From: a virus | Reading direction: 5' to 3' (one strand) | Length of the DNA: 64,000 nt | IMG/VR virus record: IMGVR_UViG_3300021364_003460 | Location: 32,001 to 96,000 of that record | Shown here: one piece after another, positions 36,119 to 54,016 of the stretch | How positions within the stretch are numbered: the stretch's first letter is position 1 | Layout: the number at the start of each line of letters is the position of its first letter | The notes under the pieces: model-generated | Database searches by the model: none | Seen by the model: only the letters and a program-made list of their open reading frames with translations | Told to the model about the DNA's origin: nothing | Position numbers and translations under genes: made by a program

Positions 36119-37582
36119 ATGCTTCAACTTACAGTTGGAAAGGAAGTAGATTACTTTTACATAACTAATGCTTCTGATTTAATAGAGGCAGTTAACAATA
36201 TTGAAAAAGCATTAGAATCTACAGATAAAATACTTGCAGTAGATACAGAAACCTATCCTTTATATAACATTTATGGAGATAGAGCTGATTTTAGAGACCC
36301 ACACACAACAGCTACTAGATTAATACAGGTCAATGTATCTTATAATAATACTCCTTATATCTTTGACTTCTTAAAAATAGGTAGAGAAGGTTTTCAACCT
36401 TTAGTTGATTTATTAATGAGGAAAGATATAAGAAAAGTAGGTCACAATTTTAAGTATGATATTAAGCAACTTAAAGCAAGTTTAAATGTGTGGCTACCTA
36501 ACTCCTGGTGTACTTTGGTGATGGCAGCTAGAGTTAATGTATGTACTGGATTCAGAGCAGGTCAAATGAGAGGTAACTCTTTAAAAGCATTAGCTAGAGA
36601 TTACTTTGGTATTGATTTATCTAAAACAGAACAAAAATCAGACTGGTCTAATCCTAATCTTGCTTCTGAACAGTTAGAATATGCTGCTTTAGATGTTAGT
36701 AAAGGAAAAAGCCATACTCAACTAAAGCATTCTGTACTGCTAGATTTATATTATCTATTTCACAATCTACTTTATACTCCTGCACCTAAAGGTTTTGGAG
36801 GTCACTGTAAACTTAAAGACTTTAAAGAACCTATTGAAGTAGACCAAGCAGCTAACTCTATACTTGCTAAGATTGAGTATAATGGAATGCCAGTATCTAA
36901 GAAGATGCTAGACCTAATTTACTCTACAGCTAGTAAAGAAGTAGAAGAATTAAAGTTGTATCTTTGTAAGAGCTTTGGTTTACCTATTCAACAAGCACTT
37001 GATTATACAGATGAAGGGGCTAAAGTAATCACTATTCTTAGTGAGGAAACTCAAAAGACTCTCAATAATCCTAAGAAACTAGTACAATTAGTTAATAAGA
37101 CTTTGAAGAAACAAGGGATTGAGTTAACTAATGTATTGTCAGATTCACTAGAGGAAGCTTTGAAGAAACTAAAAGCTAAAGAGTCTGAAGAAGAGCCTGA
37201 TGAAGAAGAGGAGTTTTATTGGGAAGATGAGGAGGAAAGCGTAGAGTGGAATATAGATTTAATAGACAAATTAATTAAGTATAAAGAGTTAAGTAAATTA
37301 GTTAGTATTGACTATAGAAAGTTGATTAACCCTGTTACTGGTAGAGTTCATAGTAGTTATCAATGTATTGGTGCTAGTACAGGTAGAATGAGTAGTGGAG
37401 GTAAAGGTAGCTTTAATGTGCAACAGATTTCGAGTAAAACAGTAGTTATAGAAATAGAAGAAACTGATCATCCTTATATCAGTTCTTCTCAAATAAACTT
37501 TACGCAGCTTTCTGACTTAGAAGATAATCTTGAGATTGATAAAACTGTTGAGCTTTGTCATACTTCCTCTGCATATAAATAG
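36119..37582 (+). CDS. polA: DNA polymerase A, N-terminal part (3'-5' exonuclease and thumb)
   Basis: AVDTET, GHNFKYD, YAALDV, IEYNGMPV, TGRVHSSY, TGRMSS..FNVQQI; TTG at 36113 is an alternative start. Confidence 0.92.
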   Translation: MLQLTVGKEVDYFYITNASDLIEAVNNIEKALESTDKILAVDTETYPLYNIYGDRADFRDPHTTATRLIQVNVSYNNTPYIFDFLKIGREGFQPLVDLLMRKDIRKVGHNFKYDIKQLKASLNVWLPNSWCTLVMAARVNVCTGFRAGQMRGNSLKALARDYFGIDLSKTEQKSDWSNPNLASEQLEYAALDVSKGKSHTQLKHSVLLDLYYLFHNLLYTPAPKGFGGHCKLKDFKEPIEVDQAANSILAKIEYNGMPVSKKMLDLIYSTASKEVEELKLYLCKSFGLPIQQALDYTDEGAKVITILSEETQKTLNNPKKLVQLVNKTLKKQGIELTNVLSDSLEEALKKLKAKESEEEPDEEEEFYWEDEEESVEWNIDLIDKLIKYKELSKLVSIDYRKLINPVTGRVHSSYQCIGASTGRMSSGGKGSFNVQQISSKTVVIEIEETDHPYISSSQINFTQLSDLEDNLEIDKTVELCHTSSAYK

Positions 37583-38381
37583 TAGCACCTACATACAAAT
37601 AATCTAAAAGTTTATTTAAATTAAACCTACCACCAAATCTTATATCAGAAGTATACTCATTACCATTTTTATAAGCAACAACTGAAGAAGTTATATTATG
37701 TTTTTCTAATAAGTAATCTTTAAGTTGATTACAAAATAAACTAGAACTAGTGATGCTTACTCCTGTTTTGTTAAGATCAGTTAAATTATTTATTGTTTTA
37801 GGAATAATTATACATCCGTCTCCATCTAAATAACCTCTTACAAAGTGTCTCATTAAATCAGCAGGAACTCCAATTGGCATTTCTAAGATTTTAGATTTTG
37901 CAGGAATACACCCTTTTGCAATAAGAGATTCTACAAAAGGCTTGTTGTATATACTTAATGTAGTAAAAGGGTTGCCGTTCTTTTCTCCATAACCTGCTGT
38001 TTTATAATAGGTTCTTATATCGCAATTAGATTCTAAACAATCTCTTAAATTATACAACAAGTATTCATCAGATTGAGTTAAGGTTATAGCAAACTTATGA
38101 GTATACTTATGTATGCTAGTATTTCCATCTGCAAAAATTAAACCTAAAAAGTAAGCTTTCTCTTCAGAATCTATTACTTCAAAATAAGTGTAGTTTAAAG
38201 TATGCCAACTACTAGCATCCTGATAACCCTTAATCTTAATACCTCTTCTTTTTAATACACCTAATATAGCTTGAGGAGAAACATTATATTCCCTTGACAA
38301 TTCTACAGACCTTTTTCCAGCTAAATAACTATTTACAATATCAATCTTTTGTTGATCATTCAATCTATTAGGTATTCCCAT
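37500..38381 (-). CDS. free-standing LAGLIDADG homing endonuclease with N-terminal HTH, antisense within polA
   Basis: Minus strand (CAT at 38379-38381; track strand is wrong); KAYFLGLIFADG and FVRGYLDGDG. Confidence 0.92.
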   Translation of the reverse strand: MGIPNRLNDQQKIDIVNSYLAGKRSVELSREYNVSPQAILGVLKRRGIKIKGYQDASSWHTLNYTYFEVIDSEEKAYFLGLIFADGNTSIHKYTHKFAITLTQSDEYLLYNLRDCLESNCDIRTYYKTAGYGEKNGNPFTTLSIYNKPFVESLIAKGCIPAKSKILEMPIGVPADLMRHFVRGYLDGDGCIIIPKTINNLTDLNKTGVSITSSSLFCNQLKDYLLEKHNITSSVVAYKNGNEYTSDIRFGGRFNLNKLLDYLYVGATIYMQRKYDKAQQFYQSQDYLLSQKAA

Positions 38382-50307: not shown

Positions 50308-50742
50308 ATGATACATATATTTAGTAGTGAATTTAAAGTAGATATTTTAGATGAAGTTGCTTTAACTATTCTTATAGAAGATAAGTGTAGATTAAAGTTA
50401 CATAAAACAGATAAAGGTAAATATTACTTTACTGGAGATAGTGAAGGCTGGTTAACTACAGTTCCTATTCTCAAACAAGATGCAGATAACTTAGGAATAG
50501 AAAACTACACTTTATTAGATGACTTTAATCCAACTAATCATTCTTTAGTAGAAGTGCTTTTCTTTGATGTAATATGCGCCTTATTAATTAAAAATAGCTG
50601 TATGACCTATTTTGAAGTAGATATAGATTCTCTTCAAACATGGACAACTAGAGTTTGGTCAGAGCCAGAAAATGAAATAACATGTTGTACATCAAAAAAA
50701 GAGGATTTATTTGATGCTATATATAATTCTTATAATAAATGA
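50308..50742 (+). CDS. hypothetical protein
   Basis: 144-aa ORF. Confidence 0.55.
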   Translation: MIHIFSSEFKVDILDEVALTILIEDKCRLKLHKTDKGKYYFTGDSEGWLTTVPILKQDADNLGIENYTLLDDFNPTNHSLVEVLFFDVICALLIKNSCMTYFEVDIDSLQTWTTRVWSEPENEITCCTSKKEDLFDAIYNSYNK

Positions 50743-51008
50743 AAACTAATATTCAAGAAAACTTACAAAAGGTTAAGTCTATTGTTAGGTATCTTATTGA
50801 AAGAGATATTAAAGGAGACTTAATCTCAATAGCTAACTTTATGATTGCTAACAAGAAAGATATACAAGGTAAAGAGTTGTTGGCTTTGACTGCTTTACTA
50901 GCTATTGATGATGCCAAAGAAGGTAAGCCTACTAGTAAAAATGAAAGTTATATGTTTCTATATAACATTGCTAGAGAAGTGTTAAGTGAAACAGTGGAGG
51001 TTAAATGA
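50739..51008 (+). CDS. hypothetical protein
   Basis: 89-aa ORF. Confidence 0.55.
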   Translation: MKTNIQENLQKVKSIVRYLIERDIKGDLISIANFMIANKKDIQGKELLALTALLAIDDAKEGKPTSKNESYMFLYNIAREVLSETVEVK

Positions 51009-51178
51009 ATGCAGAAAAGTTAGCTGAGAAGTTGGCTAATGAAAACAGACCTAGATTCTTTAGAGATTACTTAACTCAAGGAGAAGGAGGTCCAGTTGAT
51101 GTTATTAAAAATGTTATATCTAAAAACTTACATAGTCAGTTAGGTAATTTAGGTATATTTGGTAATAGTGGTACAGGT
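51005..51178 (+). CDS. dnaX: clamp loader ATPase (DnaX gamma/tau-like), exon 1
   Basis: LA.ENRP..F.D...Q; ends FGNSGTG, which joins KSALA of exon 2 to form Walker A. Confidence 0.9.
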
Positions 51179-51221
51179 AGATTAAACAGTTACCTACAAA
51201 ATTAAGTAACTAATATAGTCT

Positions 51222-51255
51222 CATAATAATTACTCAATAAATAGTAATTATTATG
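51222..51255 (+). promoter_or_regulatory. hairpin sequestering the endonuclease start codon
   Basis: CATAATAATTAC/GTAATTATTATG perfect 12-bp stem whose 3' arm ends with ATG 51253-55. Confidence 0.65.
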
Positions 51256-52257
51256 AATAGAAAAGTAAATATTGAAGAACTATTAGGTTTGTGGAATAAA
51301 GGACTTACTAGAGAACAAATTGCTAAAATTTTAAAAGTACATGTAGCTACAGTAAGTAAACATTTAAATTCTAAATTAGATTATATAGAGAGAAGACATT
51401 CTAAAGATAAACTTATTCATCTAGATATGAATAAAGTTAAAGAGTTAAGAGAAAAAGGTTACACAAGTAAAGAAATAGAAACAGAACTAAATATTTCTGA
51501 TAGTTGTTTGTATTTAGCAGGGATGTCAAAATTTCCTTTTAAAAGAAAAGGAATACACACTTACTCAAAAGATTTAGAATTCTTTAATAAAATAGACTCT
51601 TCTGAAAAAGCATATATAATTGGATTTTTACTTACTGATGGTTCAATAAATAAAAGAGGAAATATATCAATAGAAATTAAATCAGAAGATGATTATATTC
51701 TACAAAGTATAAGAGATTTAATCTGCCCTAATAAACCTATACCTAAATCTATCAGAACAAGAACAAGAGGAAAATACACTTGGACTTCTGAAACAAGTAG
51801 ATTAAATATAAAATCTGTAGAGTATATTCAACCCCTATCTAATTTTGGTATTGTACCTAATAAAACTTACAAAGACATACAATTACCAAAATTAGATGAA
51901 AAATATATGCCTGATTTAATAAGAGGTATATTTGATGGAGATGGTTCTATCTGGTCAAATAAAACAAGAAATAGAGGGCATGCTGTTAACTTTACAGGCA
52001 ATTATGTTTTACTAAAAGATATTTTTGATTACTTAAAATCTAACAATATTATAAAAGCCAATACTTCTGTAAAGAAAAAACCTCATCAGGCTGATTCCTA
52101 TTTTGTTTTCTCTTCAAAGAAAGATGTAATTAACTTTGGTAAATATATTTATTCCACAAATTGTTCTTTATATCTAAAAAGAAAATACTTAAAATTTGTA
52201 GATGCAGGTTTGCCTGTTAACTCCATGAATTGCTGGGATAACTTGAAGGCTAGTTAA
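51253..52257 (+). CDS. intron-encoded LAGLIDADG homing endonuclease with N-terminal HTH repeats
   Basis: KAYIIGFLLTDG and LIRGIFDGDG; same family as 37500..38381. Confidence 0.92.
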   Translation: MNRKVNIEELLGLWNKGLTREQIAKILKVHVATVSKHLNSKLDYIERRHSKDKLIHLDMNKVKELREKGYTSKEIETELNISDSCLYLAGMSKFPFKRKGIHTYSKDLEFFNKIDSSEKAYIIGFLLTDGSINKRGNISIEIKSEDDYILQSIRDLICPNKPIPKSIRTRTRGKYTWTSETSRLNIKSVEYIQPLSNFGIVPNKTYKDIQLPKLDEKYMPDLIRGIFDGDGSIWSNKTRNRGHAVNFTGNYVLLKDIFDYLKSNNIIKANTSVKKKPHQADSYFVFSSKKDVINFGKYIYSTNCSLYLKRKYLKFVDAGLPVNSMNCWDNLKAS

Positions 52258-52513
52258 CTACAACATAATCTGTAAAGGTAAGTGTGAATGTTTGAAAATA
52301 ACTAGTTATAAGTCAATCAGCAGCCAAGCTGCCAAGGAATTGGTAGAAGGTTCAACGCATAGTACAAGGAGTCCCAACACTTAATATGTAAGTAGTGGAT
52401 GGTAAAGTACCAAGAGTGTGGAGATTTACTTTAAAAAGTAAATAAGATATATGCTGAACTACTAGGTGACTAGTAGAACTAAAAGATAAAAAGCTTTTAG
52501 GATAACATAATTG

Positions 52514-53584
52514 AAATCCGCTTTAGCTAAGTTATATGCTACATCTACACTCTGTTATAACAGACCTGAAGGAGAGTACGAACCCTGTGGAGAATGTCCA
52601 GTTTGCTTAGGTGAAGATGTCAGCAATATTTCTCACTATACTATTCACAATACTACTTCAGCTTGGGAACCTATTAGAGATTTAGTATTAAAGAGTAAGA
52701 CTGCTCCTGAAGTTAATAGAGAAGGTGTTAGAGCAGACCAATATAGAAGGTTTATTATTCTAGATGAGATACAAAATGCTAGTCCTGAACTGTTAGCTCT
52801 TCTGTATGATGCCTTAGAGTATGCTCCTTCTACTACAACTTGGATAATTATATCTATGGATTTAGATAAGTTAGTTTCCAAGAATGCTGCTACTGCTGAA
52901 GCTATTACAGGTAGGTGTGCTGAATTACATTTACCTAGCTTTGCTGACTCTACTATTGCTACTGCTATAGCTAACAAAACAGACTTGAATTATGAAGCTG
53001 CTTTAGCCATAGCTAAGTTGAGTAAAGGTAACATGAGAAAAGCCTGGACTAACTTAGCTCAATTTAAAACTTTAGTAGAAGAAGAGAGTGAGATAACAGA
53101 AGATTTAGTTCTTTATTCTAGAAGTGGTGGGGCTACTAAAGAAAACAGATTAGCTATGTGGAAAGCATTAGCTAATGGAGATGGTAAAACAGTAAAAAGA
53201 CTTATAGATGACTGGACTGAGAAAGCTGCTGACATTAAATTAGTTGGTAGCTTACTACAAATGGATATTATAGAAAACTTAAATTCTCCATCTAAAGAAA
53301 TACAGTCTTTGTTAGCTGCATTAGGTAGATGGTATACTGGATTTAACTATCCTCTAGTTACTGTTTTTATGAGTCATCTTGGTACTAAAGTTATCCAGTT
53401 TCCTAATGCTGAAGAAAGAGAGTTGAGAAAGCAAGTTAGAGAACAAAAAGTAGAAGCTGTAGTAAATGTAGCTGATGTAGTATCACAGCAGTTGATAAAA
53501 GGTCAAGCTAACACATTTAAGTTACCTCCACTGTTAATAGCTACAGATTATAAAGAGTTAATGCTGCATTATGACAGAAACTAA
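52514..53584 (+). CDS. dnaX: clamp loader ATPase (DnaX gamma/tau-like), exon 2
   Basis: KSALAK, Zn motif PCGECPVC, ILDEIQ (Walker B), GRC (SRC-like), GNMRKA; spliced product 414 aa. Confidence 0.9.
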   Translation, partial: KSALAKLYATSTLCYNRPEGEYEPCGECPVCLGEDVSNISHYTIHNTTSAWEPIRDLVLKSKTAPEVNREGVRADQYRRFIILDEIQNASPELLALLYDALEYAPSTTTWIIISMDLDKLVSKNAATAEAITGRCAELHLPSFADSTIATAIANKTDLNYEAALAIAKLSKGNMRKAWTNLAQFKTLVEEESEITEDLVLYSRSGGATKENRLAMWKALANGDGKTVKRLIDDWTEKAADIKLVGSLLQMDIIENLNSPSKEIQSLLAALGRWYTGFNYPLVTVFMSHLGTKVIQFPNAEERELRKQVREQKVEAVVNVADVVSQQLIKGQANTFKLPPLLIATDYKELMLHYDRN

Positions 53585-53846
53585 AGTAAATAGAGTAATA
53601 AGAATCTTTGATAAGTTCTCTGACTCTTTAGTAGAAGAAATTTATATAAATGTAGAAAATAAATCAAAAGAGTTAGAAATTCTACAAATTCTATTTGGAG
53701 TAGAAAAAGATAATCTCATGTATGATTGCTATCCTATTACTACAGAAGAACAGTTTAGGTTTCTAGCTTTAAATTTTGATGTACCTTTAGATACTTTTGA
53801 TGATGACACTAAAGAGTATTTTCTAGAAGCAGATGCAGTTAATTAA
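53571..53846 (+). CDS. hypothetical protein
   Basis: 91-aa acidic ORF. Confidence 0.55.
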   Translation: MTETKVNRVIRIFDKFSDSLVEEIYINVENKSKELEILQILFGVEKDNLMYDCYPITTEEQFRFLALNFDVPLDTFDDDTKEYFLEADAVN

Positions 53847-54016
53847 GTTTAAAGAACTTCCAGTACCAACTTACTTTACTTATGAAAACATTCATTACCA
53901 AAAGATGACTAAAACTAAAGTAAGAGAGTTTGGTACTACTACAAAAAGGGTAATTAGAAGTGATCCTAAAGTTACTTATTGAAGACAAGACATTAATGAA
54001 ATGTTAATAGGAATTA

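Follow-up and report, generated by a model that had tools for sequence, protein, structure and literature searches.

How a virus encodes its clamp-loader ATPase when the reading frame is broken inside the nucleotide-binding P-loop is the question raised by one locus in the 64,000-nt stretch of viral DNA analyzed here (the window; bases 32001-96000 of the 190,865-bp virus record IMGVR_UViG_3300021364_003460). Three plus-strand open reading frames (ORFs), of 66, 334 and 357 codons in the ORF list, fill positions 51005-53584. The first (51005-51205) runs through the GNSGTG of a Walker A motif, continues for 8 codons and ends in TAA; the 357-codon ORF opens at an internal TTG (52511) and has as its second codon the Lys codon AAA at 52514; the ORF between them encodes a homing endonuclease. 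We conclude that the break is very probably due to a mobile group I intron, IA-like and without a P2 helix, that separates the Gly from the Lys codon of Walker A in the sole clamp-loader gene of this virus. The parts of the gene, with the evidence for each in brackets, are:

51005..51178, plus strand: exon 1 of the clamp-loader gene, 58 codons, ending in GNSGTG (N-terminus colinear with the intronless homologues P0002-P0018)
51179..52513, plus strand: group I intron, 1335 nt (junction, Rfam RF00028 on the core, covariation, ORF-less homologue in contig L005)
51203..51205, plus strand: in-frame TAA ending exon-1 translation, 8 codons into the intron (ORF 51005-51205)
52513, plus strand: terminal intron guanosine (omega-G), with the 3' splice site next to it (sequence; position kept in L005, L008, L009 and L035)
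52514..53584, plus strand: exon 2 of the clamp-loader gene, starting KSALAKLY (matches to phrog_5846 and TIGR02397, 35 homologues)

The junction is most clearly seen at the protein level. Exon 1 ends in GGT ACA GGT (G T G) and exon 2 begins with AAA TCC at 52514 (K S); joining 51178 to 52514 places GNSGTG before KSALAKLY and restores the Walker A motif without a gap, as it is found in about 28 uninterrupted homologues of 400-422 aa. The joined product (...LGIFGNSGTGKSALAKLYA...) is colinear with the intronless homologue P0004 (...LGLFGNSGVGKSALALLYA...), and a longer joined stretch (...LGIFGNSGTGKSALAKLYATSTLCYNR...) matches the same homologue (...LGLFGNSGVGKSALALLYARSTLCYNR...) residue for residue; five more intronless alleles were read as DNA. 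The predicted spliced product is a clamp loader of 414 aa with the GNSGTGKS P-loop intact, and the predicted mRNA junction is GGUACAGGU|AAAUCC (the bar marks the junction here and below), or in DNA letters GGTACAGGT|AAATCC and GGTACAGGTAAATCC. An initial annotation of the window had proposed precisely this splice, from 51178 to 52514 to give GNSGTG|KS, and the gap-free match to the intronless homologues bears it out. It had also named a different junction as a finding that would speak against it: other cuts add or delete residues relative to the homologues or lose the U at position -1 and the G at omega. One alternative, 51179 joined to 52515, would give the same mRNA, with an A at the end of the exon and an A at the end of the intron, and 51178|52514 is therefore the only canonical group I choice. 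As judged from sequence, a functional group I intron with this junction is highly probable.

The interrupted gene belongs to a cyanophage-like virus related to Microcystis phage Ma-LMM01 and codes for a divergent AAA+ clamp loader of the DnaX/HolB type. Exon 2 matches the clamp-loader family phrog_5846 (E 4.6e-20, alignment from profile position 52) and NCBIfam TIGR02397 dnaX_nterm (E 2e-13, from profile position 49), both alignments beginning exactly at the Walker A lysine, and it contains a zinc module (CGECPVC), a Walker B motif (ILDEIQ) and a TGRC (SRC-type) motif, so that Walker A, zinc module, Walker B and SRC-type motif are all visible in the spliced product. The dnaX_nterm score of 50 bits is far under the family cut-off of 250; the protein is accordingly a divergent phage clamp-loader ATPase and no equivalog of bacterial DnaX, and its gene is better called 'dnaX-like' than 'dnaX'. 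Among sequenced isolates, those nearest for this gene are Ma-LMM01 and the MaMV phages (43.5% amino-acid identity), where it carries the annotation 'clamp loader of DNA polymerase' or 'holB-like ATPase'; the Ma-LMM01 copy, from the one isolate record inspected, is uninterrupted. The 191-kb genome has only one clamp-loader homologue and, by an nhmmer search, only one copy of the intron; therefore the gene must be expressed through splicing.

If the intron is a ribozyme, its 5' splice site should be specified by a guide sequence, and the candidate guide lies on the far side of the endonuclease ORF:

51173..51183, plus strand: 5' strand of P1, exon ACAGGU (51173-78) and intron AGAUU, with the splice site after U51178; forms an 11-bp duplex with 52207-52217
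52207..52217, plus strand: internal guide sequence (IGS), with GCCUGU (52212-17) for the exon and GGUUU (52207-11) for the intron start (P1) or exon 2 (P10)
51183..52203 (equivalently 51179-52199), plus strand: ORF cassette of 1021 nt, absent from the ORF-less allele and flanked by the 4-nt repeat AGAT (window versus L005)

The GCCUGU of the guide stands 3 nt before P3 and pairs with the exon end ACAGGU, closing with the wobble pair U51178·G52212. The 11-bp P1 duplex (-13.4 kcal/mol) is the best partner of the splice-site region anywhere in the intron, and a P10 of 5 bp can form between exon 2 AAAUC (52514-18) and GGUUU (52207-11). The 5' splice site and the guide are separated by 1033 nt, with the endonuclease ORF in between. 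A natural counterpart of this layout is seen in the contigs L005-L007, whose clamp loader is 94% identical and carries a 314-nt ORF-less intron at the identical site (L005:2690-3003). This allele reads ACAGGU|AGAUGCAGGUUUGCCUGU, a plain P1 hairpin, and the 1021-nt cassette of the window sits in the loop of that hairpin, being the only difference in layout between the two. The AGAT repeats that bound the cassette suggest that the endonuclease gene was either lost or gained precisely, through microhomology.

Introns of the same family in unrelated genes repeat the arrangement, in that the hexamer next to P3 is complementary to the intron's own exon end with a U·G wobble (guide/exon GCCACA/UGUGGU in L035, GGCUCC/GGAGCU in L020 and L034, and GGGACU/AGUCCU in L045 and L028). 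The distance from guide to exon in these relatives and in the window is 800-1030 nt, across an ORF. The comparative data settle the assignment of the predicted guide and the placement of the ORF in L1, the loop of P1, a layout that is real and common in this intron family. The initial annotation had placed the endonuclease ORF in L1 with the IGS over 1 kb from the 5' splice site, and the ORF-less allele and the guides of the relatives agree with it on both counts. A local hairpin, AGGUAG/UUACCU (51175-95), was tried as P1 and rejected: it is weak (-3.7 kcal/mol), puts a U-A pair at the splice site and lacks a counterpart in the ORF-less allele. A side observation concerns GCAGGU, just 5' of the guide (52204-52216), a copy of the exon end ACAGGU that might pair with the guide as a short CAGG/CCUG hairpin. 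In the ORF-less allele these bases make up the P1 loop, and the copy is therefore inherited P1-loop sequence and was not made by ORF insertion.

Downstream of the guide, the catalytic core (52207-52513) can be followed helix by helix:

52221..52227, plus strand: P3 5' strand CUCCAUG, pairing with 52417-52423 (100% of cells paired; compensatory changes in 5 of 7 pairs)
52417..52423, plus strand: P3 3' strand UGUGGAG (covariation)
52230..52323, plus strand: P4 (52230-36 with 52317-23), enclosing the extended P5 arm (Rfam alignment; P4 invariant)
52241-45 with 52309-13, plus strand: P5; 52250-56 with 52299-305: P5a (7 of 7 P5a pairs covary)
52263-66 with 52282-85, plus strand: P5b; 52268-71 with 52276-79: P5c, capped by the GNRA loop GUAA (7 of 8 P5b/c pairs covary)
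52324..52350, plus strand: P6 (CC/GG) and P6a (CUGCCAA/UUGGUAG) (Rfam alignment, covariation)
52355..52361, plus strand: P7 5' strand, A52355, bulged C52356 and GCAUA (52357-61), pairing with 52450-52455 (R and S consensus elements align)
52362..52410, plus strand: P7.1/P7.2-type extension between P7 and the P3 3' strand, an IA-like feature (poorly aligned region)
52424..52443, plus strand: P8 hairpin, then J8/7 AAGAUAU (7 of 7 pairs covary; J8/7 agrees with the Rfam consensus)
52450..52455, plus strand: P7 3' strand, UAUGC (52450-54) and U52455 (Rfam alignment, covariation)
52459..52500, plus strand: P9, with the GNRA loop GUGA, and P9.1 (in P9 the 5 inner pairs covary and the 2 outer are near-invariant; 6 of 7 P9.1 pairs covary)

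The Rfam model Intron_gpI (RF00028) matches this core when searched against 52196-52530 (27.3 bits, E 3.3e-5, model positions 39-253, match 52196-52476) and aligns over its whole length (1-253) to the ORF-less L005 intron (28.6 bits, E 1.6e-5). The alignments put P3, P4, P5, P6, the R element (GGUUCAACGCAUA), P8, the S element (AAGAUAUAUGCU) and P9 where they had been traced by hand. The structure was then scored on an alignment of eleven family members with uninterrupted cores, with pairing partners moved by 1-3 columns as slid controls. Standard pairs occupy 92.3% of the cells (30-41% in the slid controls), compensatory double changes are observed in 54 of the 83 pairs, and the covariation score is 0.515 against 0.07-0.11 in the slid controls; none of 500 shuffles reaches any of the observed measures. 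P6a covaries, as do most of the helices given above. The initial annotation had held every core pairing to be traceable, and both the Rfam alignment and this covariation speak for it. A first placement of P4 and the guide at AAUCUGU (about 52266-52272) was discarded, as the relatives show P4 to be UUGCUGG (52230-36) and the AUCU to belong to the P5c hairpin. The P7.1/P7.2-type insert, the lack of P2 and the extended P5 together lead us to describe the subgroup as 'IA-like'.

P7, in which G52357-C52454 is the predicted guanosine-binding pair, differs from the usual form: it reads GCAUA/UAUGC as against GACUA/UAGUC in the Rfam consensus and in the introns of phages phiKZ, LPJP1 and AM1, two adjacent pairs having been exchanged (A-U to C-G and C-G to A-U). 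This had been described from the window as a compensated double change, which holds against the consensus and the relatives alike; it is a trait of a widespread phage intron family and not of one copy, the GCAUA form being common to at least 36 IMG/VR viral contigs in a pattern search. The outer pair A52355-U52455 becomes G-C in 4 of the 11 sequences, across the bulged nucleotide, a switch that would be expected around a guanosine-binding pair.

Alleles of the same site in relatives of varying closeness give a picture of the intron's movements. The core in the window is 95% identical to that of the ORF-less L005 copy, with the helices preserved. L008 (clamp loader 76% identical) has an intron at the same codon junction, and L009 and L010, in which the clamp loader is only 34% identical, still have a 65%-identical intron there (L009:1891-3003), with a different layout in which a complete local P1 hairpin is followed by the LAGLIDADG ORF instead of enclosing it in L1. 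These same-site introns share the P7 variant with the window, and those of L008 and L009 share the endonuclease family too. All intron-bearing alleles have the exon flank GGTACAGGT|AAA, as against GGTGTAGGT|AAATCT in the close intronless allele L052 (in wider context AATAGTGGTGTAGGT|AAATCTGCT), a difference for which co-conversion during homing and selection for P1 pairing are both fitting explanations. The intron is observed in some close relatives and is absent from others, which is the usual signature of what would be an active mobile intron. A search of viral contigs with exon 2 also recovered four distant loci, all of them intronless. There is also a hint of recombination between intron lineages, in that the L035 intron begins with a sequence (AAUUUUGCCUAG) similar to the P1 3' strand of L009.

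The presumptive agent of this mobility is encoded within the intron itself:

51253..52257, plus strand: homing endonuclease ORF, 334 aa, with N-terminal helix-turn-helix (HTH) domains and two LAGLIDADG motifs (Pfam, phrog_4645)
51221..51256, plus strand: perfect hairpin of 14 bp whose 3' arm contains the endonuclease AUG (51253-55) (fold z -3.78; 0 of 200 shuffles fold as well)

The two motifs, LLTDGSI and FDGDGSI, lie in one chain; Pfam detects LAGLIDADG_3 in two stretches (E 3.5e-9) and HTH_7 (E 1.3e-7), while the endonuclease family phrog_4645 is matched over its full length (E 8e-36), covering residues 19-315 of the 334. The protein is 39-40% identical to the ORFs of the L035 and L009 introns. 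The guide, P3, P4 and part of P5 supply the last 19 codons of the ORF, and exactly this sequence is kept by the ORF-less allele. The hairpin around the start codon probably limits translation of the endonuclease; translational throttles have been described for the T4 intron endonucleases, and this hairpin may be one of the same kind. Elsewhere, the window has a second LAGLIDADG endonuclease, a paralogue with 28% identity to the intron ORF (37560-38318, minus strand), and beyond the window, at genome coordinates 188487-188726, there is a weaker match confined to the HTH part.

From this anatomy we infer a course of catalysis, homing and regulation as follows. The exon end ACAGGU would pair with the guide GCCUGU 1 kb downstream, directly before P3, and an external guanosine bound at G52357-C52454 of P7 would attack after U51178. 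Exon 2 AAAUC would then be aligned on the same guide via P10, and the 5' exon would attack after G52513, yielding the GGUACAGGU|AAAUCC mRNA and the 414-aa clamp loader. In co-infecting relatives, the endonuclease would cut intronless alleles such as GGTGTAGGT|AAATCT, into which the intron would be copied. Endonuclease translation and ribozyme folding on a single transcript would exclude each other, because the endonuclease AUG is part of the 14-bp hairpin and the ORF runs through the IGS, P3, P4 and P5; ribosomes arriving from exon 1 would be halted by the in-frame stop 8 codons into the intron.

Several points weigh against this reading of the locus. Splicing is predicted here from sequence. 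Both RF00028 scores (27.3 and 28.6 bits) fall under the curated gathering score of 50, and Rfam gave no group I match at the gathering score in the whole window, or at E<=10 in 51100-52600. This threshold is a property of a single curated model, not a defining biological feature, and the searches across the ORF miss because the model cannot bridge a 1-kb insertion in P1. P1 has a margin of just 0.8 kcal/mol over a chance duplex near 51940, and this long-range helix also competes with the weak local hairpin at 51175-51195 (-3.7 kcal/mol). The members of the eleven-intron alignment were chosen by the pattern that fixed the 5' strand of P7; in it no variation occurs in P4, P6 or five of the six P7 pairs, which are hence uninformative on pairing, and P7.1 and P7.2 are the weakest helices, with 68-87% of cells paired. 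One might therefore read the scores under the gathering threshold, the 1 kb between splice site and guide, and an endonuclease whose translation would run through the core as marks of a decaying intron that no longer self-splices, the intron then depending on a protein cofactor or the host gene being dead or dispensable. We regard this as unlikely: the core pairings are all intact and covary with those of the relatives, none of the U·G pair, omega-G and P10 is missing, the helices are preserved in a core that has remained 95% identical to that of the ORF-less L005 copy, the endonuclease ORF and both exons are open, and the 191-kb genome has no second clamp-loader gene.

Still less probable, to the point of being hardly credible, are two readings in which no group I intron with these ends is spliced out. 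In some T4-type split genes the halves are translated independently and then reassembled, and the locus could in principle be a truly split clamp-loader gene with a free-standing endonuclease between its halves, as the annotation of exon 2 alone from an internal TTG or ATG in P0001, P0005, P0019 and P0035 might suggest. The break, however, would fall between G and K inside the P-loop, which would be intolerable for a split ATPase; the gap is filled by a conserved, covarying 300-nt ribozyme, which the ORF-less allele keeps even without an endonuclease to explain a split, and no ribosome-binding context is evident for exon 2. The insert might instead be another kind of element, or an intron with different splice sites, given that its length of 1335 nt is a multiple of three and that DnaX and other P-loop proteins are classic hosts of inteins (PMC4760082, PMC2853384). 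An intein is excluded because in-frame stops begin 8 codons into the insert (TAA 51203-05). For a group II intron, there is neither an Rfam group II match nor a reverse transcriptase match, the ORF being of the LAGLIDADG type, and different splice sites run into the added or deleted residues relative to the roughly 28 homologues or into the lack of U at -1 and G at omega. The mobile group I intron accordingly remains by far the better account of the locus.

The ribozyme has a wide distribution in phages. Megablast with 50700-53900 found no match in phage records. With the segment following the ORF, blastn matched about 120 of them, in each case along the first 100 nt of the segment; among them are the gp180-gp178 gap in phiKZ, the split nrdE of Lactococcus phage AM1, Listeria phage LPJP1 and Staphylococcus and Flavobacterium phages. 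In the phiKZ, AM1 and LPJP1 records the exons are listed as separate genes and the intron stretches stand unannotated: in phiKZ between gp180 and gp178, with gp179 upstream of P3 (L002:2501-2960), in AM1 inside the nrdE fragments (L003:2440-3500) and in LPJP1 between two hypothetical genes (L001:2440-2830). The closest relative of the window ribozyme is the intron of L035 and L047 (81% core identity, as against 65% for the L009 clamp-loader intron), which lies (L035:179-1503) at GPSNCG|KS, again between the Gly and Lys of a Walker A motif, in a gene for a polynucleotide kinase-phosphatase-ligase, Pnkp (AAA_33, Metallophos, PNKP_ligase). A search with the P9.1 block found more than 110 viral contigs, and exon 2 begins with Lys-Ser or Lys-Thr in 11 of the 102 distinct 3' junctions among the matches listed. 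Such copies include (locus, host gene, junction):

L094: no Pfam match; ATRGIG|KT
L096: terminase large subunit; exon 2 begins with KS, exon 1 lies beyond the contig
L100: DnaB-like helicase; APTGVG|KT
L101: DnaB-like helicase; AGTSVG|KT
L126: AAA ATPase; GVKGTG|KT
L136: superfamily 2 (SF2) helicase; exon 2 starts KT, upstream exon end not recovered
L155: SF2 helicase; AVGSFG|KT

The Walker A cases came from exon-2 starts, an IGS-based search for 5' exons over about 100 family loci having resolved only known loci, and the 5' ends of L094, L101, L126 and L155 were placed by protein continuity alone. The L094-L155 copies share P9.1 and the 3'-terminal block and are more distant relatives, because they are without the UUGCUGG P4 motif. 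The endonuclease family of the window recurs in L101 and L155 (28-32% identity). We tentatively raise the possibility, which we would not yet favor over its denial, that the intron belongs to a phage group I lineage that has recurrently colonized the Gly|Lys site of Walker A in non-homologous P-loop nucleoside triphosphatase genes. The guide form UUU-GCC fits GGU|AAR and may bias the family to Gly-Lys sites. The RNA could predispose the element to such sites via reverse splicing or selection for splicing competence, and the endonuclease would then fix it at the most conserved Gly-Lys site available. Hopping between P-loop genes and convergence on the most conserved site both stand as readings of the recurrence.

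These observations have consequences for annotation as well as for the biology of such introns. In the hands of gene callers, this essential replication gene falls apart into a stub of 66 aa and a 'hypothetical protein' of 357 aa without a P-loop, and the same error is present in at least four database clusters (P0001, P0005, P0019, P0035). The natural ORF-plus, ORF-minus and intron-minus alleles form a study system for homing among Ma-LMM01-type cyanophages, and the 1-kb P1 loop, with an ORF that runs through the guide and P3-P5, offers a natural case for reconciling translation with long-range ribozyme folding. The class of intron is ordinary; its host gene and insertion site appear to be new. 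Full-text literature searches found no report of a group I intron in dnaX, a clamp-loader gene, DNA polymerase III or Walker A, in agreement with the initial annotation, which knew of no dnaX intron, and the clamp loader thereby joins the replication and nucleotide-metabolism genes that host phage group I introns. Nothing relevant was found in literature searches on phage endonuclease ORFs in the P1 loop. An endonuclease ORF in the P1 region of a group I intron is known, as in the window, from PpLSU3 of Physarum, the I-PpoI intron; unlike the window element, it is a eukaryotic intron of nuclear ribosomal DNA with a His-Cys box enzyme, and it is unrelated in sequence.

Group I introns with homing endonucleases are themselves well established in phage DNA-metabolism genes, the reviewed hosts being T4 td, nrdB and sunY, the DNA polymerase genes of SPO1 and Bastille, Twort nrdE and orf142, and nrdE and nrdF of phages of the B. 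cereus group (PMC3984707, PMC2988022). The window intron resembles these in having P1-P10, R and S elements and P7.1/P7.2-type extras, in lying in a conserved codon stretch of a DNA-metabolism gene with a sporadic presence among close relatives, and in an endonuclease ORF that overlaps the core and a stop codon soon after the 5' splice site. It differs from them in its host, the Walker A motif of a clamp loader, in an ORF placed in the P1 loop rather than in P6, P8 or P9, in the lack of P2, in the extended, GNRA-capped P5 arm and in the GCAUA/UAUGC form of P7. With the phiKZ/AM1/LPJP1 family it shares a block from P3 through P4, P5 and P6 to J6/7 that is 73-81% identical over about 100 nt and, in the case of phiKZ, an ORF placed 5' of P3. 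The copies of that type, in contrast, have the GACUA/UAGUC P7 (seen in full only in phiKZ), lie in other host genes and are mostly associated with HNH rather than LAGLIDADG endonucleases. In the related jumbo phage PhiPA3, a putative group I intron in a virion RNA polymerase gene encodes an HNH endonuclease, and a jumbo-phage intron endonuclease was shown to mediate competition between co-infecting phages (PMC11620839).

The closest parallel in terms of insertion site is provided by inteins, which are well known in DnaX (PMC2853384, PMC4760082) and occur in the P-loops of DnaX, DnaB, RFC and terminase (PMC4760082). These P-loop inteins, like the window intron, are selfish elements with a LAGLIDADG endonuclease that occupy the Walker A region of replication ATPases. 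They differ in being spliced at the protein level from an in-frame insert next to Ser, Thr or Cys, whereas the window element combines stop codons with a ribozyme. The recurrence at the Gly|Lys site of Walker A, the most interesting lead from this locus, would, if true, mirror at the RNA level the known preference of inteins for P-loops.

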